DNA of 64,000 nt from Eledone cirrhosa. Its lineage: Eukaryota. The stretch's first letter is position 1, and each line of letters begins with the position of its first letter. The stretch is taken from contig OZ024743.1 of the NCBI GenBank assembly GCA_964016885.1, positions 351,168,001-351,232,000 on the forward strand. The letters are read 5' to 3'. The notes below the pieces were generated by a model. It saw only the letters and a program-made list of their open reading frames with translations. It ran no database searches and was not told the DNA's origin. Shown in pieces: positions 7,990 through 40,151 of this stretch. A program made the translations under genes and the position numbers.

Positions 7990-8013
7990 TAATAATAATA
8001 ATAATAATAATAA

Positions 8014-8737: not shown

Positions 8738-8785
<48 letters not shown>

Positions 8786-9027
8786 TTTTCTTTATTAACC
8801 ACAAGGGTTCACATAAAGTAGACATTAAGGACAGTACAGGACAACACAGGACGGTACAAATGGGCATTTCTGCGTGTAAAAAAACAGAGGTTGAAATAAA
8901 ATAACAAAGAAAAATTCCCCAATAGGGGGGAGACTTCCAAGGGACATTTGTGGAGAAAGCCCATTAAAAGACCACAGTGGCCCTGACCACCAGGGCAAGT
9001 GCCCTCTCCCAGTTTTCCACCTTTAAT

Positions 9028-12000
9028 TTACAGACACATACTCAGAGAAGGCCCATTCATTCGGGCCATACTTGCTTCTCTCACCCATCTTTCAACAAAA
9101 TGCTGGGAAGAGAGCACTTCCCTCTCTACCCTGATTTTCCTTTTCAAATGAAATTTGAAAAAGTTAATCAGGGCATCACCGAAGAGGCTCGTCTTCAGCC
9201 CTTTCAAACGTGTCCACCATACTATCTCTTTCGCCATGGCCACCAGACAGATAAAAACTGCCTGCCCTTCCAGGCTAAAGGAAGGGGGCGGGGCAATCCT
9301 CACGATGGACTCAGCTGATAGCTGGATCCGTCCTACACGTGACAGCAGGTGTTCGACATAAACCCACAAGTCAGCAATGCTCGGACACTGGACGAGTGCG
9401 TGCAGGACGGTTTCGTCGCCCTGCGCGCATCTCGGACATGCCCGGCTGACGGCACCTCCATGCCTGTAGAGTTTATCCCGAACTGGCAAAGCTCCTCGGT
9501 AGCACTGCCAGGCCAGGGATTTCTGGAAGTTGTCCATAGGCCCCGGCCCGAAAGTCCTTCCGAAGAGATTGGCTAGTTGATTTTCGTCGACGCCTAGAGT
9601 TTCTCCAAGTACGTCGTCGCTCTTCCCCTCCACTAATCCCCTATAGAACGCCAAGGTGGAGTTTCCACCGATCACATTGCCCGATTGGTCGAGGGCTGTG
9701 AGCGCCTGAAGACATTCCAGTCTCCAAGCGCTCCCTCTCGGTCTTCGCTTGACCCAGGACTGCAGCTCCGTCAAGGAGACGAGCTGGGGAAAAACGTGTC
9801 TTGCAAACGGCGACCACACCTGATCACCGTCGAGGAAGAGGTGGAGATGTCGTAGCCTGAGCGCGCGTCTGCGCATCATCAGCCACGGCATGCCCAGCCC
9901 TCCACGTAGCGGGTGTTGACAGCAGATGGACCGCCTGACCATCGGAGCGCGTCCCTTCCACAAGAAGCGAAAGAGCAAACGCTCCAGCGCAGTCAGGCGG
10001 GGCTTAGGACAAGGTACGACGGTCAGGCGGTAGTAGATGACGGATGCGATGTACGCATTCGCCACCTCCGCTCGACCTTTCAGGGATAGCTTCCTCTCGG
10101 CCCATTTCTGGGTGAGAGAAGCCACCCTGCTCGTCACCTCATCCCAGTTTTTGTCCGTCTGGAGGTCTGGACCGAACCAGACCCCTAGCAATTTAACCGG
10201 TCCGTCCGTCCAGTGCCCGACGACGCTGTTGGACGGCATGGACCTGCCTCTCCAGGTGCCGAGCTGCAGGCCCACTGACTTTTCCTGGTTGATCATTGCT
10301 CCTGTCACCGCTTCGTATTCTCTTAGTGTAGTGCCGATCGCCTCGATGTGTTTGGCGTTCGACACCACTACGGTGACATCGTCCGCATATGCTGACACGG
10401 ATCTTCCGCATCCTAGTTCGCGCGGGACCCCCCTCAACGTCTCCAGTTTGTGCAGTAATGGCTCGAGAGTCAATACGTACAATAGGGACGAGAGGGGACA
10501 TCCTTGGCGGACCGAGCGCATGATGTTGAACGGTTCCGAAAGGTGACCGTTCACTCTCACTACAGAGCAGATGTCGCTGTGCATGGCAGCGATCCAGCCT
10601 CTGAAGACGGGCCCAAAGCCAGCCGCCCTCAGGACTGCCGTTAGGTAACGATGGTCGACCCTATCGAAGGCTTTCGACTGATCTAAATTGATCAAAGACC
10701 CACCCGTGCCAGGTTCCCTAGCTACCTTCTCTACGATGTATCGCATGAGGTGGAGGTTGTCGTGGATGGATCTGTCGGGAATGGCGCATGTCTGTGCCTC
10801 TCCCACCAGACCACCAACGACAAGCGCCAACCTCTTTGCTAGCACCTTGGCCAAAATCTTGAACTCTGTGTTTAGCAGAGTTATGGGCCTAAAATTATCA
10901 ATGTTATCCCCCTTGTTCGGATCCTTTCTCAGCAGCGCCACCGCTCCTCGGCTCACAGAGCTGGGAATTCTCCCGTTCTGTTGCCAGTTGCAGTAGACGT
11001 CCGCCAAGAGGCCTCCGAACAAGTTTGGCATTTGTACGTAAAGTTCATAGGGCAGACCATCCAAACCAGGCGATTTACCCCTTGTGCAACTAGTCATTGC
11101 ATCCCGTACTTCAGCGGTTGTTATCGGCTTTTCGCAACACTCCGCCTCAGTGGCCGAAAGCCGCGGCAGTCCGTCGAGGTAGACACTAAAGTCCATCCCT
11201 CGATCCGGCCCGCCACTGCCCCCGAACAGTTGAGCGAAGTGTCGCTGAAAAGCTTCAGACATTTGCCCGGGATCGAGTAGCATGCGCCCGTCGTGGTCCA
11301 CCAAAGACCGGATCGTGGCTTTGTTGCCACGACGCGCCTCCGCCACTCGGGCCCATTGAACGGCTTTCGTCCCCTCGTGTCTGAGAGCACGCACCCTAGC
11401 TCTGACAACGCAGCCTTCGTGCTTTGCATTGAAGAATTGGTCAAGGGCCAATTTCGCCGCAAGTACGTCGGTCGCGATGCCTTTGCTAAGCGCCTCATCT
11501 AATTTTCTAACTAATTCTCCCTCTGCTCTATTTTTCTCTATTGCTAAAGTCTTACTAAACCTAATGGACTCTATTCTAATTGCTCTTTACAGAGCAAACC
11601 ACCACTTGTTGTTGACGATGGCCCCCGTCAACGCCCGCTTAACTAGTTCGCTAATCCGGTCTCTGTAGGCCTTGCGCGCTGGTAAGGACGCGTTTAACTT
11701 CCAGTAGCCGGGTCCTCGTCTATGAAGCCTATCTAAGTCAAGCATACAGATCACGAATTTGTGGTCCGTGTAGCTGACTATCTTGAATTGTGGACAGCCT
11801 ATGCTAGTCCTATCTATTTCCCTACAAAATACTCTATCTAGATATGATCTGGATGACCCTATGCGATTTGTCCAAGTCCACATTGGTACATTCGGGAAAT
11901 CCATTCGGTACCTGTCAGACAGTTCAAAACGTCTGAGCAGGTTGGTGAGACTCTTGCACCCTCCTTCCCTATCCACTAATCCCACACAATCCCAGCGTGC

Positions 12001-12441
12001 ATCTAAGATCCCGTTCCAGTCGCCCACTAACACTAAAGAGCGGGACGTTCCAAGAAAGGTCTCCAGACTCCGGAAGAAATCAGGCCGCCCTGCTCCTGTC
12101 GGGGCATAGACGGCCACTAACCTGAAAGCTTGCCCGTCTCCGCTGGTCACCTCCAGCACCACCAACTTACCTTCTGGGTCCAGGAAGATGGCCCGTATGG
12201 CAAGATCCAAACCTCTCCGAAAAAGCACAGCAACTCCTCCCCCCGATCCCGGACGGCTGGGAGATGCGTACACATCGTAGCCGCCGAAGATCGGTGCGAA
12301 AGCCTGTGCTTCGGAGATTCTGGTCTCGCTGATGGCCACTACATCTATGTTTAGTGACCTGAGGTCGTTGAGCAGGTGGCCCTGCTTCCATGACGACCCC
12401 AAGCCACGCGGATTTATGCTGCCTATTCTGAGTGAGGTCAT
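9028..12441 (-). pseudogene. Tx1 copy A ORF2 (APE endonuclease-RT-CCHC) with one in-frame stop
   Basis: 11587..12441 and 9028..11451 are in the same frame, separated by TAA at 11587-11589. Motifs: SINPRGL, SETR, GDWN, SYLDR, TDH, GPGYWKLN, DQSKAFDRV, RQGCPLS, YADD, CPRC..ETVLHALVQC. Confidence 0.9.
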
Positions 12442-12475
12442 GTTGAAAAGGAGTGGAAAAGATGGGAAAGACCAC

Positions 12476-14460
12476 TTACCTTACTTCTCGTAGGGGAAGG
12501 ACGGCTTTTCCATCCTTTTCACTGCTTGTGGCCTCCTCAGGAAGGATGTCCTTATAAATCCTCCTGGAGAGTGCTTGTCGGAAGTCTCCGATGTCTTTGG
12601 GGAATTTTTGTTTTAGTGTCATGTACGTTTTCTGTGTGATGCGAGTGATTTGTATGTGTGGAGGTGGTGTGAATTTTGGGGTTGTTGTGTAGTCTTTTTC
12701 TGTGATGCTAGTGTTGTGTTGGATGTAGTGTAATAATTGCTTGTTGTTCAAATTTAATGCTGTGTAGTGTGTATCGTTTTGGTTGTTTTGTTTTGTTTGC
12801 GTTTGTTGTGGGTTTGTTTCTGTTTCGCATTTTGGTGACTTTTGTGGTGTAGGTGATGGTGGTGCTGGGGATAATGATGGTGATGGTGTTGGTGTTTGGG
12901 TTGATGGGGTTGGTGATGCTGGTGTGGATGGTGGCATATCTGTCCTAACTTTTTTGTTTCTTAGTTTATTTGTTTCCCTCTGTATTTTGTTTTTGGAGGG
13001 GGAAGGAAGAGAATTTTTTCTTTTTTGGTTTCTTTTTTTTTTCCGGATATCGTTTCCCACTCCTCGTCGTCACAATCTGTCTCCAGTTGTGATAGGCCGG
13101 GGAGTGGAAAATCCTCCACAGCCGTCAGTTTTGGTTGTGGTGTGGTGGATGGTGTAGGCGCTGGTGCTAGTTCTGAAGCGTTGGGTGGTGGTGGTGTTGG
13201 TTTTGCTGGTGGTGGTAGTGGTATTGGTTTTGCTACTGTTGCTGGGGTTGTTGCTGTTATAGTTGCTTCTGTTGTTGCTGCTACAGTTGTTGCTGCCATC
13301 TCTGCTACTGGTGGTGTTGATGGTTGTGTCACTGGGGTGGGTAGGAGAGGTGGCCTCAACCTTTTAGCCTGAGGGCAGAAAGCCCTTAGGTGGGTTCCTT
13401 CACCACAAACGACACACCTAGGTCTTCTGCCCTCGACAATTACCGTGAGGTGGCTGCCGTCAGTGAGGTCTATTACCTCTGGGATCTCCTCAATGCTTTT
13501 TTGGTCCGCTTGGATCAAGAGCTCCATCCCAGATCCGGACCAGTTTTCCTGCTTTTCTTTTGCTACTGCTATTATTTTCGTGTTGGCTTCGATGCCGGCG
13601 AGGACAGCCGCTATTAGCCAGGGAATTTCGATGGCCGGTGGAACGAGGGTCACCCTGATCTTTACGAGTCGCTGGCCACAATAGCTTGGGACGAGTGTGA
13701 GGTCGTCACTTTTTAATGGGGCCATGGAGTGTTCTCTAGCCTCCTCTGGTGTTTCAAAGAACACATCCACGGTTCCATACTTTTGCCCACGTCTGATGTG
13801 GGTTTTTCTTGCCCACACATGTCCCAAAGCTTTTTGGATTTGGGACTCGGATGCCCGTTCCACTCGGCGCGATTTTACATTTATTGTTCTATACGACACG
13901 GTGCACAGGCGCCGATGCTCCATTTTATTAGGTGGGGGGGTGAGGCTGACCCTGTACCCATCTTTCTTTACCATTTGTTTGGCATTTTCTAAATCTTCTT
14001 GAGTTACCGTGAACGCTTCGAATTGTTTTGCTACGATGGTGAAACTGAGGGTCGGTTTTATAATGTCATTGTTGTTGTTGTTGCTATCGTTAATATTAAT
14101 TTTAGTTTCAGTTGTGGTGTTGGTGACGTCAGTCGTCTTTGGTGCGGAAGAGTCCATTTTGCTTGATTTCATTTCGACATCACGAGTTAATTTATTTTTT
14201 TCTTCTTTTGTTTCTGTTGTCGCGGTGGTGGTGGGGGTGGTGGTTGTCGCGGTGGTGGTGGTGGTGGAGGCTTTAACACCTGCAGTCATTGGTAATGGCG
14301 GGAAATGAATGTCTGCCTGAGACAAATTTAAAATATTGCTACTGCTTATATTTTTTTTTGTGTTGGCAAACGTAGTAACATTTACAATGGTGGTGTCGGT
14401 GTGAGGTGTTATTTTGTGAGGAAGGCTTTCAGCTGCTTCGTGCAGAGGGGAATTAGCCAT
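12476..14460 (-). pseudogene. Tx1 copy A ORF1 (Gag-like, CCHC knuckle), one frameshift in an A-run
   Basis: 12961..14460 and 12476..13060 overlap at A-runs around 13015-13042. Knuckle CVVCGEGTHLRAFC. Pro/Thr-rich linkers. Confidence 0.8.
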
Positions 14461-14669
14461 TTTTTTTTCAAAGAAATTTTTGGATAATAATAAAAGTTAA
14501 AATTTTGGGCACAAGGCCCCAATCTTTTTGGGTGTCCTTTTCGGAAAACAATGTATGTGTGCTTATAAACAGTTAACAATAAAATTTTCCATAAATGGCA
14601 ATTTTTAACAAACGGAAATAACAAACCTTTGCGGAGCTCACGATAATACGATTTCCTACGTAGGTCGCC

Positions 14670-14717
<48 letters not shown>

Positions 14718-14719
<2 letters not shown>

Positions 14720-17700
14720 CTTCTTTATTGGCCACAAGGGCTGACATCAAGAGAAACATTACAGACGGCACAGGACGGTTCAGGACGGTTCGATGTGGGT
14801 TTTGTGCGTGCAAAGATTTTTATTATTTATATAAAAAAGATTAAAAAAGACATAGAAACATATATATATATATAAACAATAAAAATGAAAATTGAAACAA
14901 TGAAAAATTCCCCAATAGGGGGGAAACCTCTGAGGGTTACTCGTGGCGAAAACCGCACAAAAGACCACGGCCACCCTGACCACCAGGGCAAGTGCCCTCT
15001 CTCAATTTTTCCATTTCTCAAACTACAGGCGTATATTCAGAGCGGTCCCGTTCACTCAGACCACTCTCGCTACATTCACCCACCTTTCAACAAACTTGCT
15101 AGAAGGCAGCACTTGCCTCTCCACCCTGATTTTCCTCTTCAAGTGAAACTTGAAAAAGTTAATTAGGGATTCGCCGAAGAGGAAAGTATCTGTCTTTAAC
15201 CCTTTCAACCTTGTCCACCACACAATCTCTTTCGCCATGGCCACCAGGTAGATGAAAGCCGCCGGCCCTTCCTCCTCGAAGGAAGATGGCGAGACCATCA
15301 GCTCAATGGACTCAGTCGATAACCGGATCAGTCCTACACGCGACAGCAACTGTTCGACATAGCTCCACAAGTCAGCAATGCTCGGGCACTGAACGAGAGC
15401 GTGCACGACGGTTTCGTCGCTCTGCGTGCATCTCGGACAGGCTCGGCTGACGGCACTTCCGTGCCTGTAGAACTTATCTCGAACCGGCAACGCTCCCCGG
15501 TAGCACTGCCAGGCCAAGAATTTTTGGAAGTTATCCATAGGCCCTGGGCTGAAAGTTCTCCGGAAGAGAGCAAACAGCTGATCTTCTTCGACGCCCAGGA
15601 TCTCTTCGAGAATGTCGTCGCTCTTCCCCTCCACTAGTCCTCTATAGAACGCCGAGGTGGATGTTCCACCGATACTGGTGCCCAGCTGGCAGAAGGCAGT
15701 GAGCGCCTGGAGACATTCCAGTTTCCAAGCGCTATCCCTCGGTCTTTTCCTGACCCAGGACTGCAGCTCCGTCAAGGAGACGAGCTGTGGGAGAACGTGC
15801 CTGGCGAACGGCGACCACACCTGTTCACGGTCAAGGAAGCACCAGAGATGTCGCAGCCTCAGCGCATGTTTGCGCATCATCAGCCATGGCATGCCCAGTC
15901 CTCAACGCAACGGGTGTTGACAGCAGATGGATCGTCTGACCATGGGAGCGCGTCCCTTCCACAAAAAGCTCCAATGGCGAGAGTTGGGCCGGGGCAAGGG
16001 ACGACGGTGAGGCGGTAGCAGATGACGGATGCGATGTACTCATTCGCCACCTCCGCCCGGCCTTTCAGGGACAGCTTCCTCTGGGTGATGGACGTCACCT
16101 CTTTCCAGTTTTTCTCCATCTGGAGGTCCGGTCCAGACCCCGAGCAATTTAACCGGTCTGTCCGTCCAACGCCCACGACGCTGTCGGACGGCATGAACTT
16201 GCCTCTCCAGGTGCCGAGCTGCAAGCCCACCGACTTTTCCTGGTTTATCTTTGCTCCTGTCACCCCTTCGTATTCCTTGAGAGCGGTGCCGAGCATCTGG
16301 ACGTGTCTGGTACTCGACACCACTGCGCTGACGTCGTCGGCGTAAGCCGGTTCGGATTTCCCGCATCCTAGTTCGCGTGGGGCGCCCCTATTCGCCCCCA
16401 GTTTGTGCAGTAACGGCTCGAGAGCCAATACGTACAAAAGGGACGAGAGGGACAACCCTGGCGGACCGAACGCATGATGCAACGGCTGCAACGTGTGACC
16501 GTTCACGCTCACAACTGAGCAGATGTCGTTGTACATCGCAGCGATCCAACCCCTGAAAACGGGCCCGAAACCGGCTGCCTCAAGGAACGCTGCCAGGTAC
16601 CGATGGTCGACTCTATCGAATGCTTTGGATTGATCCAGGTTGATCAGGGCCCCACCCGTGACAAGTTCCTTCACCACCCTCTCTATTATGTATCGCATGA
16701 GGTGGAGGTTGTCGTGTATGGATCTGTCCGGAATAGCACATGTCTGCGCCTCTCCCACCAGACCCTTGACGACAAGCGCCAACCTCGTTGCTAACACCTC
16801 GGCCAAAATCTTGATCTCTGCGTTTAGCAGCGTTATGGGCCTGAAGTTATCGATAACATCCCCCTTGTTCGGGTATTTTCTCAGCATCGCCACCGCTCCC
16901 CGGTTCACAAAACTGGGAATGCTCCCGTTCTTCTGCCAGTTGCAGTAGAAGTCTGCCAAGAGGTCACCGAACAAGTCTGGCATAAATGCATAAAGCTCGT
17001 AGGGCAGACCATCCAAACCTGGCGAGTTACCCTTCGTGCAGTTAGCCATCGCTTCCCGTATTTCACCGGCTGTTATTGGCTTTTCGCAGCACTGCACTGT
17101 GATCATCGAGAGCCGCGGCAGTCCGTCGGGGGTATGCACCTAAGTTCGTACTCCGATCCGCCGCTCCCGAGCAATTGAGCAAAGTGCTGTTGAAAAGCCG
17201 CACACACCTGCTCCAGTTCGAGCAACATGCGCCCGTTTTGATCAGGAAAAGACTGAATTGTGGATTTGTTGCCACGTCGCGCCTCCACCACCTGGGCCCA
17301 TTGAACGGCTTTCGTCCCCTCATGTCTCAGAGCACGCGCGCTCTAGCTCTGACAACGCATCCTTCATGCTTTGCGTTGAATAATTGGTTGAGTGCCAATC
17401 TCGCCGCAAGTATGTCGGTTGCGATGCCTGTCCTAAACGCCCCTTCCGGCTTTCTAACTAGCTCTCCCTCTACTCTATTTTCCTCAATCACTACTCCTTA
17501 GCTAAACCTTATCGATTCTACTCTAATAGCCCTTTTCAGGATAAACCACCACCTGTTGTTGATGATCGCACCTGTCAACACACGCTTAACTAATTCGTTA
17601 ATGCGGTCTCTGTAAGCTTTGCTCGCCGTGAACGATGTGTTCAGCTTCCAGTAACCGGGCCCATGCCTATGGAGTCTATCTAAGTCTATTTCACAGATCA

Positions 17701-20621
17701 CAAATGTGTGGTCTGTGTTGTTGACTACTATAAATTGTGGACAACCTACACTAGCCTTATCTGTTTCCCTACAGAATACCCTATCTAAATACGATCTGGA
17801 TGACCCGATGCGGTTTGCCCATGTCCACATTGACACATTCGGATAATCCAGTCAATACCTGTCAGACAGTTCAACAGGTTGTTGAGGCTTTTACACCCTC
17901 CTCCTCTGTCTACTAACCCCACATAATCTCAGTGGGCATATAAGATACCGTTCCAGTCGCCCATTAACACTAAAGAGCGGGACGGTCCAAGAAAGGTCTC
18001 TAGACGTCTGAAGAAATCTGGCCGTCCTGCCCCAGTTGGGGCGTAGACGGTACTAGCTTGGAAGCATTGCCATCGCTGCCGGTCACCTCCAGCACCACCG
18101 ACATTCCTTCTGGGTCCAGGTAGATGGCCCGTATGGTGAGACCCAAGCCTCTCCAAAAAAGCACAGCAACTCCCCCCCCCCTCTCCCGGACGGCTGGGAG
18201 ATGCGTATACATCGTAGCCGCCGAAGATCGGTGCAAAGGCTCGCGCTTCGGAGATTCTGGTCTCGCTGATGGCCACCACATCTACGTTTAGTGACCTGAG
18301 GTCGTTGTGCAGGTGACCCTGCTTCCAAGATGACCCCAGACCACGTACATTTATACTGCCTATTCTAAGTACGGCCATGCTGTGTGAGGAACGGGGTAAG
18401 TGAGAAAGGATCACTTACTTTGACCGTGTGGGGAAGGGACAGTAGAACCGTCCCTTCGGCTGGTGATGGGTGTCTCCAAGACGATATATTTGTATATTCT
18501 CTTAGAGAGTGACCCCTGAAATCCCCAACTGCGTTGGTGAATTTTTGTTTTAATTGTGTGTAATCTTCGAGTTCGATTTCCACAATGTTAATATCTTTTG
18601 GTAATTTCTTGGTGTTGGTGGGGTGTGGTAATTTACATCTGAAATATCTGTGTGCTGTTTTATATGTTCCACTAGTCCTTGGTGTGCAATGTTTATGGTT
18701 GTGTACTTTGGGGAGGGAGGGGTGGTTTTGTTGCTGTTTTCTTGTTGTTGCTGTTATGTGTGTGTGCTTTGTTGTGTTTGCGATGTTGCTGTTTGTGGTG
18801 ATGCTGGTGGTGGTGGTGTGGTTGTTGTTGGTAGTGATGCTTGTGGTAGTGATGGTGGTGGCGTTGCTGAAAGTCACCTTGCAGCCTTTACCCTTCTTTG
18901 TTTGTCCTCGCTTTTGGAGGGCAAAGCTAAGTGGTTCTTTCGTTTTTGTTTTTTGTGGCAGACCTTTTGCCACTTCACTCCCGCCTCATACTCCATGTCG
19001 GATTCCGTGGCATCTGGGAGGGGTATGTGCTCCATGGCTGTTGGTGGTGGTAGTATAGCACTCTCCGGCGATTTTGTTGCTGGTGCAGCTACTGCAAATG
19101 TAGCTACTGGTGTTTCCGCCACTGATGCTGTTGCTTTAGTTGTCCGTGGCCTTGGTATGGGTGCCACGGACGTTGCCCTCCTACTCACCGTGGAAGGGTC
19201 TTCTGCCTCTGTTGGCTGCCCTGCTCTTGGTAGCAGGGGATCAGGCGTTGGAAGGAGGGCGGGGGGGGGGACTCTTCTTGTTTGTCTTCTGCGGGCAAAA
19301 GGCCCTGAGGTGACCCTTTTGCCCACAGAGATAACTTTTGGGCGCCTTCCTTCCACGCGTATAGGGAGTTGGAGTCCTTCCTCGAGGTCTATGATATCTG
19401 GGATAGCCTCGATACACTCCTGGTCAGTTTGTATTAGCATTTGCATGCCTATACCTGACCAATTCTCTCTTCTCATTCTCTGTATTTGCAGTATGGAAGT
19501 CCTGTCCTCGATTCCAGCAAGGACAGACGCGGCCAGCCAAGGTATAGGCATGTGCGGCGGGACCTGGGTCACTTTGACCCTCACAATTTTCTGCCCGCAG
19601 TAGGAGGGCACCAAGACTATCTCCTCACTCTTTAGGGTTTCCAAAGAATGAGACTTCGCCTCTTGGGGGTGGCGAAAAGTACGTCTACTGTGGCATACAT
19701 TTTACCTCGGGTGATGTGGGTTTTGCGCGCCCAGACGCACCCCAAGGCCTTTTGGATTTTAGCCTCCGTGGCTCTCTCCACCCGATGTGACATTTTGCTT
19801 ACAGTGCGGTAAGTCACCGTCCGTAGCAGCTGGTCCTTGAAAAAATCGGGTGGATGTTTCAGGGAAACTCTATTGTCATTTCTTGTCACCATGGCCCCTG
19901 CGACTGCCATCTCTTCCTCCGTGACTAGCACTTTTTCTATATTTTGGGCCACACCTGCGAAAGAAATGGCCCCTTTTTCAGCGGCCTCACCATTATTGCT
20001 GCCGATACTGCTGCTACTGGTCTTGTTGTTGGTGCTGTTGATACTGCTACAAACGGTATTGTTGCTGTTATCACTGTTGTAGTTGGTTCTGTTTTTGTTG
20101 CCACCGTTGTTGCTGTTCTCGGAGCAATTTGTATTGTTGCTGTTGGTGTTGTCGTTGTTTATTTTCTTGTTAGTGGTTTTAATATCATTATTGCATTTGT
20201 TGTCATTTGTTTCTGTTGTCTGTATTTTGGTTGTCGCTGTTATTGTTGTAGTTGGTGTGGTAATTCTTTTTAAAATAGTGTTCTCAGTGTTGTTGTCATT
20301 GCTGTCTTTGTTCACATTGTTTGTGGTGGTGTTAGTTGTATCAATTTCTGTAACCATAATCCCAACTTTTACGCCGTTGTCACGCGACAGGAGACATATT
20401 GCTGGGGGGCGTGGCTAAGCCATGTGATGTTTTTTATAATTTTTAAAAGTAAAATGTTCAAATATTTGGGCCAAGAGGCCCAAATATTATACTTTCCCCC
20501 TCACAGGGCAAAGTCCAAGGGCTTATATCCCTTACACAACAAGAAAAGTTTAACAACAAATAATTATAACGGTAAATAAAGCGACTTACTGGGAGCGAGC
20601 AAAAGGACGTCCGATCAGACC
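14718..20621 (-). mobile_element. Full-length but decayed Tx1 element, copy B, in (ATT)n
   Basis: ORF1 pieces 19632..20357, 18874..19644 and 18365..18973. ORF2 pieces from 18378 down to ~15023 are homologous to copy A but carry many frameshifts. (AAT)n at both ends. Confidence 0.9.
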
Positions 20622-27948: not shown

Positions 27949-27984
<36 letters not shown>

Positions 27985-28198
27985 TTCTTTATTTACCATA
28001 AAGGCATAAAAAGAAGGGACAAATACAAAGGGGGAGTTTACATATAATCGAGTAAAAAGGGTGTAACATGAAAATAATCGAAAATAACCTCAAAAGGGAG
28101 GGGACGTGATGGGGGTTGCACACACCCCCGAAAAAGTGTGCAATCCTTTGCCCGGGGAGCACATGGAGAAGGTGTTCCCCTCTCCTTTACTTCTTTAC

Positions 28199-31100
28199 CT
28201 ACAGGATGGTATACAGAGAAGGCCCATTTACACGAGCCATTCTCGCCACTATCACCCACCTTTCATAAAACTGCCTGTGGCCAAGCACCTCTCTCTCCAT
28301 TCTTATCCTTCTTCCGAAGTGATATCGGAAGAAGTAGACCAGACTATGGCCAGAGAGGAAGTTGCCTGACCTCAGACCTTTCAATCGTGTCCACCAAACA
28401 ACCTCTTTCAACATGGCTATTACGCACAGAAAAACCGCCTTTGCTTCCTTTGTGAAGAGGGGAGGCGGTTTGATTGTCATCACGGACTCGGCGGTCAATT
28501 TAATCGGCGCCACCCGCGACAGCAGTTGTTCGGCGTAGCCCCACAGATCAGCCACGCCCGGACATTGCACCAATGCGTGCGCCACGGTTTCTTCGTGACG
28601 CACGCATCTAGGGCAAATCTTTTTTGAGGGATCCCTGCCCGGGCGCCCGTGTCTGTAGAGCCTCTCTCGAACGGGTAGAGCCCCTCGGTAGCACTGCCAG
28701 GCCAGTGACTTCTGGAAGTTGTCCATTGGTCCTGGGCCGAAAGTCCTACCGAACAGGCTGGCCAGTTCGTCTTCTTCCATGTCCAGCGACTCTCCAAGGG
28801 TGTCATCGCCCCTGCTAGCCACCAGCCCTCTATAGAATGATGAGGTGGATTCTCCACCGATGGCCCGGCCCGCTTGCCAGAGAGCCCTGAGCGCCTGAGC
28901 ACACTCAGTGTGCCAGTCTCCCAGTTTTCCGGATCTTTGCTTGACCCAGGACTGTAGCTCGGTGAGTGAGACGAGTCTCGGAAAGGCTCGTTTCACGAAC
29001 GGAGCCCACACCGGTTGACCAGTGAGGAATACCTGTAGGTGCCGTAGCCTTAATGCGTGCCTACGCATCATCAACCACGGCATCCCCAGCCCTCCTTTCG
29101 AAGGTTGTTGGCAGCAGATGGATCTTCTCACCATAGGAGGACGCTTCTTCCAAAGAAATTGGAAGAGCATGCGTTCCATGGTGGTGAGTGTTTCCTTAGG
29201 GCAAGGCACGACAGTCAGGCGGTAGTAAGTGACGGACGCTATGTAAATGTTCGCCACCTCCGCCCGGCCTTTTAGGGACAGCTTACACTTGGCCCATTTC
29301 TGGGTTAGTGCAAACACCTTGTTCGTAACCTCGTTCCAGTTCTTTTCCACCTGGAGGTCCGGTCCAAACCAGACCCCAAGCAACTTTACCGGGCCCTCCG
29401 TCCAGTGTCCGACGACACCGTCAGGAGGCATCGGTTTGCCTCTCCACGTTCCGAGTTGCAGCCCGATGGATTTTTCCCGGTTCAGTTTCGCTCCTGACAA
29501 CCTTTCGTACTCCTCCAGTAAGGTACCGATCGCCTCGATCTCCGAGTCGGTTGATACCATTACTGTTACGTCATCGGCGTAGGCCGACACCGCTTTGCTC
29601 AATCCTGGTTCCAGGGGGATACCCTGCAACAACTCCAACTTCCTCAGTAAAGGCTCGAGAGTCAATACGTACAGAAGGGAGGAGAGAGGGCACCCCTGTC
29701 GAATGGATCGTGTGATTTCGAACGGCTTCGAAAGGTAGCCGTTCACCTTGATCCTAGAACAGATGTGGTTGCTATGTAGGGCAGTGATCCAGCCTCTGAA
29801 AACAGGACCGAACCCAGCCGCCGCTAGCACCGCATCCAGGTAACCATGGTCGACCCTATCGAAGGCCTTAGACTGATCCAAGTTGATCAGGGCCCCACCG
29901 AAGCCGGGTTTGTTGCCAACCCTCTCTATGATGTATCGCATGAGGTGGAGGTTATCGTGAATGGACCTGGATGGGATAGCACATGTCTGCGCATCTCCCA
30001 CCAGGCCACCCACGACAAGCGCCAACCTCTTTGCTAACACCTTGGCCAAAATCTTTAACTCTGTGTTTAGCAGGGTTATGGGCCGAAAATTATTTATACT
30101 ATCCCCCTTGTTCTCGTCCTTCCTCACCAGCGTGACTACGCCCTTGGCTACAGAACAAGGAATTCTCCCGTTCTGCTGCCAATTGCAGTAGACCGCTTCG
30201 AGGAGTTCGGAGAAGAAGACCGGCATTGCTAAATAAAGTTCGTAAGGTATACCATCGAGACCTGGAGATTTGCGTCTGCTGCATTGGCTCAGCGCATCTC
30301 CGATCTCATCAGCCGAGATTGGTCCCTCGCAGGACTCTGCCTCTTTGTTCGAGAGACGCGGCAGGCCGTCGAGGTATGGACCGAAATCCACGCCCCGGCC
30401 CGGACCCTCGCCTCCCCCGAACAATCGGGCAAAGTGCTTTTGAAAGGCCTCGCACATCTGCTTAGGCTCCCGGATCACTCGTCCATCTTCGTCTTGCAAC
30501 GACCGGATGGTGGATCGATTTCCACTTTTAGCTTCTGTCACGCGGGCCCATCCAACGGCTTTGGCCCCCTCATTACCTAGAGCACGTATTTTACTTCGAA
30601 TGACGCAGCCTTCATGCTTTGCATCGAAAAACTGGTTCAAGGCCGTCCTCGATGCCAGCACTCTGGCCACATCTTCGCTCTTGATTGCCTCTTCTAATTT
30701 ACCTGTTAATTCTTTCTCGTTTCTATTCCTATTGGCAGCTAACATCTTGCTATAACTTATTGATTCTGTTCTAATCTCTCTTTTGAGAGATGCCCACCAT
30801 CGGTTGTTGACGATTGCACCCGTCAACCTCTCCTTAACTAATCTGCTAATCCGGTTTCTGTAAGTCTCTTTTGCCGGTAAAGACAAATTAAGTTTCCAGT
30901 AACCGGGACCCTGTCTATGTGTTTTCTCGAGATTGACCACGCAGGTCACTAATTTGTGATCCGTGTAGCCAACCGTGCGCATTTCTGGACAGCTTAATAT
31001 GTCCCTATCCTTACTTCTAACTAAGAATCTATCTAAGTACGATCTAGATTGACCACTGTGGTTTCTCCAAGTCCAGGTAGGCACAGTTGGAAAATCTAGT

Positions 31101-31636
31101 CGATATCTATCGACCAAGTTAAAACGGTCGAGTAACCCCTTGAGGCTGTTACACCCCCCTCTATTAGGACATGCTCCTGCATAGTCCCAACGTGCATCTA
31201 GGATGTCATTCCAATCCCCCGCTAGAAGCAGGGAACGCGACGTTCCCAGAAAAGTCTCCAAACGCTGGAAGAAGTCGGGCCGTTCAGCTCCGAAAGGGGA
31301 GTAGACGGCGACCAGTCTCAAGGCCGCACTTTCACTACTGCCAACGTCTAGCACCAACAAACGACCCTCCGGGTCCGAGTGCACAACCTGTACGGCAAGA
31401 CCCAGGTGTTTTTGCAGCAGCACGACAACCCCACCCCCACCTCCAGGTTGACAGAGAGATGCATGCACCTCAAAGTCATCGAAGGTGGGGGCCAGCTGCC
31501 GCATGACGCTGATTCGAGTCTCACAGATAACCATTACATTTATACTACATGACCTGAGGTCATTTAGAAGCTTTGCTTGCTTCCAAGTTGAGCCCAGGCC
31601 ACGTGCATTCAAACATCCTACTCTTAACACATCCAT
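28199..31636 (-). CDS. Tx1 ORF2 protein, 1145 aa: APE endonuclease, reverse transcriptase, CCHC domain
   Basis: Uninterrupted ORF. Motifs: CLNARGL, CETR, GDWN, SYLDRF, TDH, DQSKAFDRV, RQGCPLS, YADD, CPRC..ETVAHALVQC. Confidence 0.92.
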   Translation of the reverse strand: MDVLRVGCLNARGLGSTWKQAKLLNDLRSCSINVMVICETRISVMRQLAPTFDDFEVHASLCQPGGGGGVVVLLQKHLGLAVQVVHSDPEGRLLVLDVGSSESAALRLVAVYSPFGAERPDFFQRLETFLGTSRSLLLAGDWNDILDARWDYAGACPNRGGCNSLKGLLDRFNLVDRYRLDFPTVPTWTWRNHSGQSRSYLDRFLVRSKDRDILSCPEMRTVGYTDHKLVTCVVNLEKTHRQGPGYWKLNLSLPAKETYRNRISRLVKERLTGAIVNNRWWASLKREIRTESISYSKMLAANRNRNEKELTGKLEEAIKSEDVARVLASRTALNQFFDAKHEGCVIRSKIRALGNEGAKAVGWARVTEAKSGNRSTIRSLQDEDGRVIREPKQMCEAFQKHFARLFGGGEGPGRGVDFGPYLDGLPRLSNKEAESCEGPISADEIGDALSQCSRRKSPGLDGIPYELYLAMPVFFSELLEAVYCNWQQNGRIPCSVAKGVVTLVRKDENKGDSINNFRPITLLNTELKILAKVLAKRLALVVGGLVGDAQTCAIPSRSIHDNLHLMRYIIERVGNKPGFGGALINLDQSKAFDRVDHGYLDAVLAAAGFGPVFRGWITALHSNHICSRIKVNGYLSKPFEITRSIRQGCPLSSLLYVLTLEPLLRKLELLQGIPLEPGLSKAVSAYADDVTVMVSTDSEIEAIGTLLEEYERLSGAKLNREKSIGLQLGTWRGKPMPPDGVVGHWTEGPVKLLGVWFGPDLQVEKNWNEVTNKVFALTQKWAKCKLSLKGRAEVANIYIASVTYYRLTVVPCPKETLTTMERMLFQFLWKKRPPMVRRSICCQQPSKGGLGMPWLMMRRHALRLRHLQVFLTGQPVWAPFVKRAFPRLVSLTELQSWVKQRSGKLGDWHTECAQALRALWQAGRAIGGESTSSFYRGLVASRGDDTLGESLDMEEDELASLFGRTFGPGPMDNFQKSLAWQCYRGALPVRERLYRHGRPGRDPSKKICPRCVRHEETVAHALVQCPGVADLWGYAEQLLSRVAPIKLTAESVMTIKPPPLFTKEAKAVFLCVIAMLKEVVWWTRLKGLRSGNFLSGHSLVYFFRYHFGRRIRMEREVLGHRQFYERWVIVARMARVNGPSLYTIL

Positions 31637-31669
31637 GTGGGCGGCAGAGCCAAAGGAGAGTGTAGAGAC

Positions 31670-33551
31670 CTACCTTTCCGCTTCCCGGGGTTCGGGTTGC
31701 ACGACTTCCATGGGGTCGGGGGTGTTGGGTGAAGGGGTGTCTTGTGGTGGTGTGGGGTCGTCGGTGTGTGGTGGGGTTGGGGTGTTTGGAGTTGTGTTGG
31801 GGAGGGGAAGGGGAGGGGGAAAGCTTTTTAGTAGGACGCGGTTTATGGGTTTGACAGAGGGTGGTCCTACGTCCTCCTTAAAATCCTTTTTTAGTTTTTG
31901 GTAGAGGTTCATTGGGATTTTTATTAGTTTTAAATGTGGGTGGTTTTCTGATGAAACAAAGTTTACACCTTCGGTTTGTACCGAAGGATTATTGTATATG
32001 AGTTCATTTAATTTATTATTGTTTCTGTTGATGTAAGTATAGTGTAATGTCTTTTTTTCCGATGGTGTGAGTGTTTCGAAGAGGGGAGGGGCAGGTTTGG
32101 TTTTGTTTGTTGCTGGAGGGGTGTTTTCTGTTTTGTTAGATTGTGTTGCGATTTGGGTGGGGGTTGTTTGTCCTTGTGTGTTTTGCACATGTTTTCTTTT
32201 TTTCCTTTTAATCTGTCTGAAGGACTCCGTTTCTTCCTCCGAATTCGTTGGGTTATCTTCAGTGTTGGAGGGAAGAGGTATGTTTGCTGGTAATGTTTCC
32301 GTGTTGGTTTTCTTTGTGGGGGAGATGGATGTCACTATGTTAGACTGTGTTGTGTGTTGTGTCTGCGGTGGTTGTGTTGTTTTATTGAGTGAGAGGTTGG
32401 GTGGGCCTGTATTTTGTTTTGGGGTAATGTGTTGTGACTGTTTGTGTTGTGGTGGTGTTGTGGTGTTACTGAGGGACGGGTTGGGTGGGACTGAGTTTTG
32501 TTGTTTGTTTATCTGTTGTGGTGGTGGTGGTGGAGCTGGTGTTGGTAGCAGGGTTTTCTTTTTGTTGAGTTGGGGACAAGCGGCCTTCAGGTGCCCTCTG
32601 CCTGCACAGATATGGCAGGACGGCCTTCTCCCCTCCACGCTAATGTTTATATACCCGTGGTCCTCTAATAGGATTCTGTCGGGTATTTGGGCGATGCGTT
32701 CAGGCTTCATTTGTACTACCAGCTCTATACCTGTTCCACTGAACGCATTGCCTGTGGTTTTCCCAATGGAAATCACGTTGTCATTCACTGGATCGATGAA
32801 GCCAGCTATGAGCCAGCAGTAGTCCACATCTGGCATCATTGCATCCAGCCATATGCGTTGAGTTTTTTTCCCCATATAAGATGGATAAAAGGTGAAATTT
32901 TTCGAACGAATCGGTGACAAAGCACATTTTTTTGCCGCCGATTCGTTCTTCATGATAATTGCTAGGCTTCCATACAGTCTGTCTTTTCTTATGAAAGTTG
33001 TTTCATTCAGTACTTCTGCGAGTACTGTTTTGATATCTGCTTGAGAAGGCTGTTCAGGTTTTTTTTGTACTGTTGTTGATGGTCCGAAACTTGACCGTTC
33101 GGCTTTCAATGTCTTTCGTGAATTCTTGAGGCATTTTTACCAATAAAATACCATTCTCACCTTCACTTATGTATTGTTTTGCGTCCGTGATTCTTCGTAC
33201 CACATCTGAAATGTTTTCCGCTATATAAGTCAAAGATTTCTTTGTTTTCTGTGCAAAAGAGATCTTGTCGTCTGCTTTGTTTTCTGATATTATGTTATTT
33301 TCAACTGTTATTTTTTTGTTTGTTGTGTCTTTGTTTGTGTTATTAGTATTGTCATGCAATTTTTCAAATTTTTTTTTTTCGTTGTTTTCGTCATTTAATT
33401 TTTTTTCCTCCGCAGATTCGTCCGTTTTTATTTTCATTTTTCCTTCCTTCTCTATGACGTTAGTTGGGAAGGAAGGGAGGACTAAAGCGTGCGAGCTTAC
33501 AACTCTTACCGCTGTCCCCCCACCACTATTTTCGTTCGCTGCGTTTAACAT
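31670..33551 (-). pseudogene. Tx1 copy D ORF1 (CCHC knuckle), split by one frameshift at an A9 run
   Basis: 33054..33551 and 31670..33109 overlap at the T-run 33059-33067. Knuckle CHICAGRGHLKAAC. The shift may be a sequencing error. Confidence 0.75.
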
Positions 33552-33782
33552 TTCTGTTAGACGATTGAAATTTTTTACACAAAATTTTTTAAAACAGGTT
33601 TTTCACCTCTAGGAGGGGTAAAGATGAGCTGACCCACCGCCTGACAGTTCAGACGGAGGGTCAAGCTACACAATTGTATCAAAATTAAGTTTGAACTCAC
33701 AAAATTTCCTCAATAAATTTGAACAAAACTTCTGTGCGAAGTGAATGACATCCACACTGTAGAACAGACGACAGCTAGATTA

Positions 33783-33813
<31 letters not shown>

Positions 33814-33849
33814 TATTTCTAGATAGATAGATAGATAGATAGATAGATA

Positions 33850-34410: not shown

Positions 34411-34439
34411 AGATAGATAGATAGATAGATAGATAGATA

Positions 34440-37400
34440 AATTTCTATTTATTTGCCACGAGGTCACAAAAGAAGGGGACATTTACACAGTGGGGGAGTT
34501 TACATAAATCGAGTAAAGAAAAAAGGAATAACAATAATAATATAACAATAAAAAGTCCTCAAAAGGGAGGGGGCGTGTTGGGGATTGCACATACCCCCGA
34601 AAAGTGTGCAACTCTTTTCGCGGGGGAAGCCCAGAGAGGAGGCGCTCCCTCTTTCCTCTTCACTTCTTCACCTATAGAACAATGTAGAGAGAAGGCCCAT
34701 TTACACGGGCCATTCTCGCTTCTTTCACCCACCTTTCATAAAACTGTCTGGGACCAAGCACTTCTCTCTCCATCCTGATTCTTCTTCCGAAGTGGTATCG
34801 GAAGAAGTAAACCAGGTGATGGCCGGAGAGAAAGTCACCCGACCTCAGACCTTTCAGGCGCGTCCACCACACAACCTCTTTCATCATGGCTATTACGCAC
34901 AGAAAGACCGCCTCTGCTTCATTTCTGAAGGGAGGAGGCGGCTTGATGTTCACCACAGACTCGGCGGTTAATCGAATCGGCGCCACACGCGACAGCAGTC
35001 GTTCGACGTAGCCCCACAGATCGGCAACGCCCGGGCAGTGTACCAGTGCATGCGCAACGGTTTCCTCGTCGCGCACGCATCTGGGACAGATCTTTTTCGC
35101 GGGATCCCTGCCCGGGCGCCCGTGCCTGTAGAGCTTTTCTCGAACGGGCAGAGCCCCCCGGTAACACTGCCAGGCTAGGGACCTCTGGAAGTTGTCCATG
35201 GGTCCCGGGCCGAAAGTTCTACCGAACAGGCTGGCCAGTTCGTCCTCCTCCATGCCTAGCGACTCTCCAAGGGTGTCGTCGCCCCTGCTAGCCACCAACC
35301 CTCTATAGAATGTCGAGGTGGATTCTCCACTTACAGTCGGGTCCGCTTGCCAGATAGCCGTGAGCGCCTGGACACACTCAGTGTGCCAGTTGCCCAGTTT
35401 TCTCGGTCTTTGCTTCACCCAGGATTGCAGTTCGGTGAGCGAGACGAGCTGTGGGAAGGCTCGTCTCACAAACGGGGCCCACACCGGCTGACCGTTGAGG
35501 AATACCTGTAGATGCCGTAGCCTCAATGCGTGCCTACGCATCAACAGCCACGGCATACCCAGCCCTCCTTTCGAAGGGTGCTGGCAGCAGATGGATCTCC
35601 TCACCATGGGAGGCCGCTTCTTCCAGAGGAACTGGAAGAGCATGCGTTCCATGATGGTGAGCTTTTCCTTGGGGCAAGGCACGACGGTCAGGCGGTAGTA
35701 GATGACGGACGCTATGTAAGCGTTCGTCACCTCCGCCCGACCTTTCAGTGATAGTTTGCACTTGGCCCACTTCTGGGTCAGCGCAAACACCCTGCTCGTC
35801 ACCTCGCCCCAATTCTTCTCCACCTGGAGGTCCGGTCCGAACCAGACCCCGAGCAGCTTCACCGGGCCCTCCGTCCACCGCCCGACGACACCGTCTAACG
35901 GCATCGGTTTGCCCCTCCACGTTCCGAGTTGCAAACCGACTGACTTGTCCTGGTTCAGCTTAGCCCCCGTCAGCCTTTCGTATTCCTCGAGTAGGGTGGC
36001 GATCGCCCCGATTTCCGAGGCGTCCGCCACCATTACTGTTACGTCGTCGGCATAGGCCGAGACCGCTTTGTGCAATCCCGGTTCCAGGGGTATGCCCCGC
36101 AGCAACTCCAACTTCCGCAGCAGTGGCTCGAGAGTCAATACGTACAGAAGGGAGGAGAGGTGGCACCCCTGTCTGATGGATCGGGTGATTTGAAACGGCT
36201 CCGAGAGGTAGCCGTTTACTTTAATCCTAGAGTAGATGTTGTCACTGTGCATGGCAGAAATCCAGCCCCTGAAAACGGGTCCGAAGCCCGCCGCCGCTAG
36301 CACCGCATCCAGGTAACCATGGTCGACCCTATCGAACGCCTTAGATTGATCCAAGTTGATCAGGGCCCCACCAAAGCCGGGTTCGTAGCCAACCCTCTCT
36401 ATGATGTATCGCATGAGGTGGAGGTTGTCGTGAATGGACCTGGACGGGATAGCGCATGTCTGCGCGTCTCCCACCAAACCACCCACCACAAGCGCCAACC
36501 TCTTCGCCAACACCTTGGCCAAAATCTGTAACTCTGCATTCAGCAGAGTTATGGGCCTAAAGTTACTTAAGTCGTCCCCCTTGCTCTCGTCCTTCCTCAC
36601 TAGCGTGACCACGCCCTTGGTCACAGAACAGGGAATTCTCCCGTTCTGTTGCCAGTTGCAATAGACAGCCTCGAGGAGTTCGGAGAACAAGACCGGCATA
36701 GCTAAATAAAGTTCGTATGGTAGACCATCGAGACCCGGGGATTTGCGTCTGCTGCATTGGCTGAGCGCTTCCCCGATTTCAGTGGCTGTGATTGGCCTTT
36801 CGCAGCACTCCGCTTCGCCGCTCGAAAGACGCGGTAGACCGTCGAGGTATGGACCGAAGTCCACATCCCCGTCCGGCCCCCCGCCACCTCCGAACAGTCG
36901 AGCAAAGTGCCTTTGAAAGGTCTCGCACATTCGCTCAGGTTCAAGGATCACCCGTCCATCCTGGTCTCGCAAAGACCGAATGGTGGATTTAATCCCACTC
37001 TTGGCTTCTGTCACGCGGGCCCAGCTAACAGCTTTGGTCCCCTCGTTTCCTAAAGCACGTATTTTACTTCGGACAACGCAGCCTTCGTGCTTCGCGTCAA
37101 AGAACTGGCTCAATGCCGTTCTCGTCGCTAACACTCTGGCTACGTCTCCGCTCCTAATCGCCTCTTCTAGTTTATCTGTTAACTCCCTTTCCCTCCTATT
37201 TCTATTCGCCGCTAGTTCCTTACTGTAACCTATCGAACTTACTCTAATCTCTCTCTTTAGAGATATCCACCACCTACTGTTGACGATCGCTCCCGTCAAC
37301 CGCATCTTAACTAAGCTACTAATCCGGTTTCTGTAATCTTTCTTTGTCGGTAAGGACAAGTTCATCTTCCAGTAACCGGGACCTTGTCTATGCGTTCTAT

Positions 37401-40151
37401 CAAGGTTGACCACGCAGGTCACTAATTTGTGATCTGAATAGCCAACCATGATCAGTTCTGGACAACTAAATACGTCCCTATCCTTACTCCTAACCAAAAA
37501 CCTATCTAGGTACGATCTAGATTGTCCACTGCGGTTTGCCCAGGTCCAGGTTGGCGCAGTTGGACAATCTAGTCGAAATCTATCGACCAGGTCGAATCGA
37601 TCGAGTAACCCCTTGAGGCTGCTACACCCCCCTCTATCGGGACATGCCCCTGCATAGTCCCAACGCGCATCTAGGATTCCATTCCAGTCCCCCACTAAAA
37701 GCAGGGAACGCGACGTTCCTAGAAAAGTCTCCAGACGTTGGAAGAAGTCGGCTCTTTCCGCCCCGAAGGGAGCATAAAGACCGACCAGTCTGAAAGCCCC
37801 GCCTTCACCGCCTCCGACGTCCAGCACCAGTAATCGACCCCCCGGGTCCGAGTGAACAATCTGTACGTCGAGAGTCAGACGTTTATCCAGCAGTACGGCA
37901 ACTCCCCCCCCCCCCCCCCGCTTCCGGGTTGACAGAGAGATGCGTGCATCTCAAAGTCATCGAAGGCGGGCGCCAGCTGTCTCACGCTGCTGATCCGACT
38001 CTCGCAAACAACCATCACATCTATACTTTGTGACCTGAGGTCACTTAGAAGCTTTGCTTGCTTCCAAGCTGAGCCCAGGCCACGCGCGTTCAAACAGCCA
38101 ACTCTCAATTGATCTATTTTGGTGTTGAAAGTGAAGAAAGAAAAGCACTTACCTCTCCGGGTTGCGTAATTTCCATGGCATCAGGTGTGTTGGGTGGAGG
38201 GATGTTTTGTGGTGGTGTGGGGGTACACGTGTGTGGTGGGGTTGGGGTATTTGGAGTTGTGTCAGGGAGAGGGGCGGTTATGGGGAAATCTTTCAAGAGG
38301 ACGCGATTCAACGGTTTTAAACAGGGGGGGGCTCACGTCCCGTCTAAATTGTTCTTTTAAGGAACGATAAAGGTCCAGAGGGACCTTTATCATTTTTAAA
38401 TGGGTGAAGTTCTCTGTTGAGATAAAGTTTGGCCCTTCGGTCTGCACCATAGGGTTATTGTTTATTAATTTAACCAGTTTTTTGTTTTCTTTATTTATAT
38501 ATGTGTATTGCAACGTCTTTTTTTGTGATGCTGTCAATGTTTCGGAGAGGGGAGGCGCAGATTTATTTTTGTTTGTTGAGGGTGGGGTGTTTTTGATTGG
38601 AGTTGGTGTTTGTGTGTGGGTTATTTGTGGTGTGCTGGGTGTGTGTTTTCTTTTTTTTCTTTTAACTTGTCTGAAGGCTTCTCCTCCTTCTTCTTCAGAA
38701 GTTGGGGGAAACTCTTCAGCGCTAGGTGGGAGTGACGTGTTGTGTGGTTGTTTTTTTTTTGCGGGAGGGGTAGATTTGTTACTGTTTTTTTTATTATTTG
38801 TTTGGAATGGGTTTTGTGGTGGTGGTGGTAATGTTTGTGTCGTGCTTGTGGTTGGTGATGGTGGTGGTGATGTTTGTGTTGTGGTTGGTGGTGGTGATTT
38901 TTGTGTCGTGCTTGTGTTTGGTGCTGGTGGTGGTGATGTTTGTGTTGTGTTTGTGGTTGGTGGTGTCTGTATTTTGTTTGCTGTGTGTGGTATTAGTGTA
39001 TTTTTGGAGGTGGGTGGTGTTGGTGTACTGTTTGTGGTGGGTGTGGGCAATAGTCCTTTTTGGGGGATACGTTTCGGGCAGTTAGCCTTAACGTGTCCCC
39101 TTTCCATGCATAAATAGCATGCTGGTCTTCTCCCCTCTACAATTATGTCTATTGGGGTAAGGTCATCCAGCCAGATGCGATCCGGGATTTGTGCTATTCT
39201 TTCGGGCCTCATTTGGACTAGTATGTCGAGGCCCATTCCCAGGAACGCATCTCCAGTTGCCTTCCCCATTGACAGCATTGTGTCTTCGCCCATATCAATG
39301 AAGCCAGCAATAGCCCACCAGAAGTCCATTGTGGGCAGCATTGTTTTTACTTTTACTCTCTGTGTTCTTCTACCCATGTAGGAGGGATAGAAGCTATATG
39401 TTGTCGACGAGAGTGGGCTTAGGGAAAGCTTCTCCGCCGTTTCTTTGTCTCTTGTTAGGGCCGAAATGCTGCCATAGAGTCGGTCCTTTCGTATGAAGAG
39501 AATATTCTTCATATAGTCTTTTAGGACTAACTCTATTTCCATTTGGCTGGGCTGTGCTGGCTTTCTTGTCTGGTTCAGTATAGTTCTGTAGAGAACTGTG
39601 TTTTCTACTCTGGCTTTCTTGAATTCTGGGGGGGGAGTTAATGGAAAACATTCCGTTCTCCCCCAAAACAATGTGTTTCTTTGCTTCGGCCAGTTTTTCT
39701 CTGGCGGCAGTTAGGTCAATTGGTGTGTATGTAATGGATTGTTTTGTTTTCTGGGCGAAAGTTGCCCTGTCGTTATTTGTATTATTTTCTGTTTGTTTGT
39801 TTTCTGTTTGCTCATTTTCCTTAACATTTGTTTTTTCATTTTGTTTGTTTGTTTCAATGTCTAATTTTGTTGTAATTATTTTTTGTTCTTCAGACTTGGG
39901 GGGGCGTGGCAGAGCTAATGGCAGACATATCTGCCATCTTTTCCGCCATGCTGCCAAGAAAGAAATTTTTCGGCAAAAATAGATATTTATTTTACCCCCT
40001 AAAAAGGGGGTAAATGCAAAAATGTTTCCCTAAATAACAGGGGTTAGTGTTCCAAATGTGTTGCACTAAAAAATTTATCCGGTACTTACAATAGTAAGGG
40101 TAAATCCCGATGGAATAGCGGAGCCGATGCGAAGCGTGTCTTACTCTATCA
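34440..40151 (-). mobile_element. Full-length Tx1 element, copy F, in (GATA)n
   Basis: (GATA)n at 34411-34439 and 40152-40178. ORF1 pieces 39394..39957, 38262..39671 (CYLCMERGHVKANC) and 38114..38311. Confidence 0.92.
34672..38117 (-). pseudogene. Tx1 copy F ORF2, frameshift at a C-homopolymer (~37903-37919), start codon reads ATA
   Basis: 37875..38108 plus 34672..37827 are colinear with the copy D ORF2. Confidence 0.85.

Follow-up and report, generated by a model that had tools for sequence, protein, structure and literature searches.

A conserved splice-donor-type site at the ORF1 end of LINE elements from Eledone cirrhosa, rarely spliced and possibly a U1 binding site

Introduction

The production of full-length two-gene RNA by LINEs and the expression of their ORF2 are poorly settled outside mammals. 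Among the closest described systems is human L1, with a conserved sense-strand donor in the 5'UTR (G98U99/SpIREs) that overlaps a RUNX3 site and is mostly unused; rare spliced RNAs were retrotransposed, and spliced copies amount to 131 of 6,609 (~2%) in the accessible part of that report (PMC5860796). [quoted passage not shown] In MLV, the donor is attenuated by structure (PMC2794156, accessible part). Regarding translation, ORF2 of mammalian L1 and of SART1 is accepted to be made by reinitiation, which in caliciviruses can also begin at non-AUG codons; in these systems a downstream ORF is read from an unspliced bicistronic RNA with a short spacer or a stop/start overlap, and the accessible sections of the source mention no donor at the junction (PMC5972666). 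Within the Tx1 clade, Kibi and Koshi are two-ORF APE-type LINEs that lie in microsatellites, (TC)n and (TTC)n tracts, and the accessible text on them describes no junction donor (PMC4494074).

Here we analyze a stretch of 64,000 nt from Eledone cirrhosa (contig OZ024743.1, positions 351,168,001 to 351,232,000), referred to as the window, and the related copies found across the genome. These elements resemble Kibi and Koshi in architecture, with (ATCT)n and (ATT)n as target tracts, and differ from human L1 in the placement of the donor at the ORF1 stop, in the lack of a conserved acceptor and in the share of putatively spliced copies, about 1 in 9,000. In the literature searched, which did not cover subscription papers or Repbase notes, we found no description of a donor at the ORF1 stop of Tx1 elements. 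The lineage-wide donor-type feature is real and, within that literature, apparently undescribed.

Results and Discussion

Elements of the window

Four full-length copies, A, B, D and F, lie on the minus strand of the window (Table 1), and only in copy D is ORF2 unbroken from its start. Their ORF2 matches Pfam RVT_1 and Exo_endo_phos above the cut-off and zf-RVT just below it, so that it has the endonuclease, reverse transcriptase and C-terminal zf-RVT-like region of Tx1/L1-group non-LTR elements. A PDB search with ORF2 returned a single hit, one chain, which we take to be the human L1 endonuclease, and the nearest named relatives of ORF2 are Argonauta hians proteins with 61-63% identity. ORF1 carries the CCHC knuckle seen in the ORF1 of that group; it gave no Pfam hit, and its Atlas look-alikes gave zf-CCHC at 0.91-0.92. 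Copies A, D and F each have AATAAA at their end and lie between tracts of (ATT)n or (ATCT)n, in line with the microsatellite targets of Tx1, and tandem copies are spaced ~5.8 kb. The Tx1 label fits this anatomy; it is based on architecture and on the name given in an earlier sequence-only reading of the window. No relatives of the elements were found in metagenome scans. There are two target classes within one lineage, the D, E, F and K types being found in (ATCT)n and the A, B and J types in (ATT)n (window 27949-40175 and 8740-14717, respectively), and the arrays are often head-to-tail with mixed families.

Table 1. Coordinates of the LINE copies and their junction features in the window (donor-type sites given as -3..+6, the slash marking the cut)
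Feature	Position	Strand	Remarks
Copy A, full-length element	8785..14669	-	between (ATT)n tracts; ORF1 frameshifted
Copy A, ORF2	12441-9028	-	one internal stop
Copy A, donor-type site AAG/GTAAGT	12474..12482	-	cut after AAG; ORF1 phase 2; includes ORF1 TAA stop 12478-12476
Copy A, pyrimidine-rich spacer	12442..12473	-	ends in start context of ORF2 ATG (12441)
Copy A, second AAG/GTAAGT 9-mer, within ORF2	12165..12173	-	codons of PEGKL; 9-mer can arise by coding
Copy B, degraded full-length element	14718..20620	-	5' end approximate
Copy B, donor-type site AAA/GTAAGT	18413..18421	-	family state AAG/GTAAGT; ORF1 phase 1, by homology in window copy
Copy B, ORF2 ATG	18378	-	ORF1 stop TGA at donor +6..+8
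Copy D, full-length young element	27985..33784	-	between (ATCT)n tracts; AATAAA end
Copy D, donor-type site AAG/GTAGGT	31668..31676	-	phase 2; includes ORF1 TAG stop 31672-31670; ORF2 ATG 31636
Copy D, ORF2, open	28199..31636	-	endonuclease, reverse transcriptase, zf-RVT-like region
Copy F, full-length element	34439..40151	-	between (ATCT)n tracts
Copy F, donor-type site GAG/GTAAGT	38147..38155	-	ORF1 phase 0; ORF1 continues across spacer
Copy F, ATAG	38114..38117	-	ATA instead of ORF2 ATG, overlaps ORF1 TAG stop; fixed in family

The sequence-only reading had reported a donor consensus at the end of ORF1 in the four copies, 35-40 nt before ORF2 and followed by a pyrimidine-rich spacer. We confirmed the GT at 12479 (A), 18418 (B), 31673 (D) and 38152 (F), the spacer in each copy and the distances to the ORF2 start (38, 40, 37 and 35 nt, respectively). 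In A and D the donor does split the last Arg codon, and the next AG is in frame, giving a segment of 52 nt in A (AG at 12428) and of 51 nt in D (AG at 31623). The placement of this AG in an AGA codon of ORF2 stands for A and D and fails for B and F, both of which have an earlier AG at 39 nt.

Conservation of the donor-type site

The motif proved wider than the four copies first reported. A degenerate motif of the ORF2 N-terminus has 10,588 matches in the 3.0-Gb genome, and GTARGT lies 41-69 nt upstream of it in 9,748 matches, or ~92%, a figure that is approximate because the combined pattern was one base looser than the motif-only pattern; the density of GTARGT in the window (58 sites on two strands) gives a chance expectation of ~1.3%. 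It is also present in 28 of 30 unselected copies. We clustered 137 distinct copies and took 17 real ones as subfamily representatives, whose ORF2 DNA is up to ~40% apart. The donor is kept in all 17, with positions -1, +1, +2, +3 and +6 invariant (G/GTA and T at +6), a purine at +4 in 17/17, G at +5 in 16/17 and A at -2 in 15/17, as in the U2-type 5' splice-site consensus. Of the 38 fourfold sites of ORF2, 34 vary among the same representatives and 4 do not. These figures somewhat overstate the evidence, because a motif search was used to find the donor, which makes the per-column invariance partly circular, and because the subfamilies are related to each other. Contigs of a second organism contain E- and F-type junctions, donor included. 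This comparison supports that a donor-type site at the ORF1 end has been maintained, probably under selection on its sequence.

The position of the donor relative to the ORF1 frame differs among families. It is in phase 2, an Arg or Gly codon followed by the stop, in A, A2, D, E, E2, E3, G, K, I and J; A, D, G and E3 have copies with an open ORF1 that show this, and for the others it was read from the homologous frame. Family B is in phase 1 in 6/6 other copies, including one whose frame is open from the knuckle, and family H is in phase 1 at 8/8 distinct places, one with 649 open codons. Family F is in phase 0 in 25/25 copies by homologous frame; among five copies open from the knuckle, four are in phase 0 and one in phase 2. 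The proposal that B and F would fit the pattern of A and D with a 1-nt indel is thus not borne out, phase 1 and phase 0 being family states. A parsimony count requires at least three frame changes on the tree, all with the donor kept, an indication that selection acts on the nucleotides and not on the Arg codon or the stop. In family F the ORF1 stop has moved to +36, the donor is retained, and GTAAGT and GTAGGT both segregate, a Ser/Gly change.

These data bear on the idea that the site has no separate function, being an ancestral Arg-stop context kept by codon constraint and chance. It would account for the motif being an Arg/Gly codon plus stop plus GT in 11 of the 16 phased families and for the T at +6 in B and H, where the shifted stop begins with that base; in ORF2, too, some columns of Arg codons are nearly fixed, and the frame shifts may be recent. 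We consider it very unlikely, because +5/+6, which are non-coding, and the Arg codon's third base are fixed while the adjacent spacer is unalignable and 34 of 38 fourfold sites vary, and because the motif is kept after the shift in three H subfamilies and in F.

A translation signal (a stop context or a reinitiation tether) or a DNA-level factor site that merely resembles a donor deserves more attention, and we judge it unlikely but credible. In all representatives the donor sits at the ORF1 stop or no more than 36 nt away from it, and the ORF2 start follows 25-53 nt further on. A similar context, G-TAG-GT, surrounds the ORF2 stop in the K/E/F/D clade, with TAA-ATT or TAG-GC elsewhere (not in A, J and H1), and the conserved human L1 donor has been attributed to the overlapping RUNX3 site in the accessible part of that report (PMC5860796). 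However, the motif is kept where the stop moved off it (F, +36), the ORF2 stop context drifts across clades while the donor motif does not, and the variation of the motif obeys U1 pairing rules. In this sense, donor variants seem compensated as U1 sites, CAG going with GTAATT or GTAGGT and ACG with GTAAGT. The donor is the best or tied-best U1 match within ~5.5 kb in 29 of 30 rows, some of which come from the same family or place, the exception being A2 copy L239; a strict count gives 27/30, as the window copy of B (a mutated copy, 7.0 vs 7.5 for a site elsewhere) and A2 copy L238 also score lower. Against a U1 site it may be said that the same donor 9-mer occurs by coding within ORF2 of A, B and J, that the ORF2 stop of one clade has the similar context given above, and that in phase-2 families +2..+4 are set by the stop codon anyway.

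Acceptors and the proposed ORF1-ORF2 fusion

The sequence-only reading proposed that an intron of ~50 nt fuses ORF1 to ORF2 in frame, and our data do not support it. Of the 16 phased families, 8 have the first AG after the donor in frame (A, A2, G, K, E, E2, E3 and D) and 8 have it out of frame (B, J, H1-3, I1-2 and F); in F and I none of the examined AGs is in frame. Among the 17 representatives this AG is CAG/TAG in 7, AAG in 7 and GAG in 3, lies 28-61 nt from the donor and varies in position, before or after the ORF2 start, so that no conserved YAG acceptor follows the pyrimidine tract. Family I lacks an AG at the AGA-codon position because the codon there is CGA. Branch-like words were noticed by eye in I, J, K and H2 only. 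A length of 39-54 nt is probably short for an intron of this host; we found no paper on the minimum intron size of molluscs.

As a route to ORF2 activity, the removal of a 39-61 nt intron to yield an ORF1-ORF2 fusion protein is highly improbable. It agrees with the in-frame AG of half of the phased families, with a join that would rebuild the Arg codon and with the CAG acceptor of A and A2. It fails in the out-of-frame families, and acceptors are mostly AAG though Leu codons yielding CAG/TAG were free. The Leu position of the LRIG motif is hydrophobic in 90 of the 93 relatives that have the motif (of 167 proteins), and in 6 of the 8 in-frame families fusion would put E, N or D in place of this conserved residue. 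Moreover, a fusion RNA encodes ORF2 and would therefore be copied in cis, yet no fused copy was found among about 9,000 screened, compared with the 131 of 6,609 spliced copies given for human L1 in the accessible part of PMC5860796. A weak search for longer ORF1 relatives, that is, fused proteins, found none. In the fish Metynnis hypsauchen, gene models (P0074 cluster) include predicted proteins of ~1,510 aa with an ORF1-like part and ORF2 in one chain.

Two further arrangements were observed at the junction. In family J, a CAG/GTAATT donor is followed by a pyrimidine tract and a TAG acceptor 5 nt before the ORF2 ATG (L191-L220), the segment measuring 47-49 nt and not being in frame with ORF2. 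Families D, E, G and some others have an open spacer whose length is a multiple of three, with ORF2 directly following ORF1 in frame after a single stop (window 31637-31669, minus strand), which is not the case in A, F and E3. Stop-codon readthrough was rejected, as the stop-to-start distance is in frame in only some families.

Search for spliced genomic copies

An exact-join pattern was searched in the genome for A, A2, D, the E types, F and H, G was searched separately, and B, K, J and I were left out; the covered families comprise ~9,000 copies, as estimated from family shares among the first 100 of the 9,748 matches. There were 13 hits, 12 of them unspliced or truncated copies, and none in the search for family G. 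The remaining hit, L095 (= L157, G000:C3:46207668), is an old family-H copy that lacks exactly the 53-54 nt GT..AG segment, with 3 nt of microhomology at the deletion. The join removes the ORF2 ATG and stops ORF1, because family H is in phase 1. The background, 3 deletions of 30-80 nt across 111 copies with 164,306 aligned bases, predicts ~0.01 exact losses, or 0.1-0.4 allowing for microhomology bias and older copies, which makes a rare splice likelier than chance. L095 is then a possible, unproven, spliced and retrotransposed copy, and its exact GT..AG loss suggests that the spliceosome can recognise the donor. The rate is ~1 putatively spliced copy in 9,000, and that copy gives a stop.

Searches with the exon end, which gave 9 (D/E), 5 (H), 21 (A) and 1 (G) distinct places and missed partners with A at +3, found it followed by something other than the donor only where there were point changes or small indels, in L095, and in two candidate joins of family A. 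These two were discarded, one as a chance match and the other as an antisense rearranged stretch; L094 was discarded as a 5'-truncated copy. Contigs of unrecorded molecule kind on copy D run through the junction unspliced, and the matches listed include no 31622/31674 joint; rare forms are lost in contigs, and these were not counted as evidence.

A low level of regulated splicing, to a near or far acceptor, might instead yield RNA that encodes ORF1 only or has ORF2 disabled, and so set the ORF1:ORF2 ratio. L095 is what such splicing would leave, as it lost exactly the GT..AG segment together with the ORF2 ATG and ended ORF1 at once, and in family J, 28 of 30 copies have a well-formed pyrimidine tract with a TAG acceptor. 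Few genomic traces would be expected, because RNA without ORF2 would seldom be retrotransposed. Still, we find this quite unlikely: within their scope, the exon-end searches in D/E, H, A and G gave no other join, the outcome would vary by family (fusion, stop or ATG kept), and no acceptor is common to all families.

A possible U1 site on an unspliced two-gene RNA

Kept at the ORF1 end while the supposed intron is almost never lost, this donor sequence is likely a U1 binding site and not a fusion device. Of the two options left by the sequence-only reading, splicing or U1 binding alone, the latter is the best reading of the site as judged from its conservation. The explanation that we favor, at a little under an even chance, combines a conserved, rarely spliced U1-type donor at the ORF1 end with ORF2 translation by reinitiation on an unspliced two-gene RNA. 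The sequence at the ORF1 end would bind U1 snRNP and seldom be spliced, splicing being held down by a short spacer that offers no good acceptor. Bound U1 would help RNA polymerase II to complete the full-length RNA and would protect it, for instance from premature cleavage at poly(A) hexamers of the A-rich ORF1 tail, which lies just upstream; the HIV-1 major donor has such an effect. Ribosomes would then restart after ORF1 to translate ORF2. This explanation is supported by features that the comparison establishes: retention of the site in all sampled subfamilies and in three ORF1 phases, the lack of a conserved acceptor, the pyrimidine spacer and the start context.

The upstream region gives a mixed picture of the suggested role in anti-termination. 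The 800 nt before the donor contain 41-43% A in most copies, and D, F, H2 and I have several poly(A) hexamers there, at about the density predicted by that composition. In D and F the hexamers lie 250-700 nt upstream of the donor, which resembles the 195-nt spacing of HIV-1; the HIV-1 and foamy virus donors differ in being also heavily spliced and in guarding a defined LTR poly(A) site (PMC3694450, accessible part). Several B, K and E-type copies have no hexamer within 800 nt upstream, and we found no conserved upstream poly(A) site. Since the hexamers are near chance density and absent in some copies, an anti-termination role is only compatible with these data. A hairpin hiding the donor was also considered and rejected, as the spacers fold no better than shuffled ones in most families (mean z -0.49) and the folding is mostly compositional; a hairpin is specific in B, H and perhaps A2 only.

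In its broadest form, which we put forward tentatively and with less confidence, the whole LINE lineage would depend on an orphan U1 site at the ORF1/ORF2 boundary, required in cis for the two-gene RNA and kept through frame shifts next to a splice-avoiding spacer, with ORF2 restarted, in one 600-copy family from a non-AUG codon that overlaps the ORF1 stop. The 17 subfamilies constitute a natural experiment in which one U1-type site is kept while the frame, the spacer and even the start codon change. Both the recruitment of U1 by a retrotransposon without splicing and the reinitiation of ORF2 at a natural non-AUG codon are directly testable. The finding would be a minor one if the site were a stop-codon context only.

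The ORF2 start and family F

The ORF2 start context, CCAAC-ATG-G, is conserved. Family F, whose junction has 613 exact matches, carries ATA in 100 of the 100 matches listed, overlapping the ORF1 TAG, and the F copies L115-L139 and L231 have no ATG for ORF2. In one F copy with both frames open, ORF2 runs for 1,146 codons from the ATA and its first Met is residue 35, beyond the first endonuclease strand; this intact copy has no in-frame AG near the start. Having neither an ATG nor an in-frame acceptor, family F likely translates ORF2 from unspliced RNA, by non-AUG reinitiation or by a slip at the ORF1 stop. Compared with the mammalian L1, SART1 and calicivirus systems, it thus offers a natural ATA/TAG overlap.

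Outside the junction, blocks that resemble paired stems are common to the 3' UTRs of K, E, F and D, as is a conserved end before AATAAA (window 28000-28200 and 34450-34680, minus strand). A different LINE, which we presume to be RTE-like, lies on the plus strand at window 4195-8656 and matches Pfam RVT_1.
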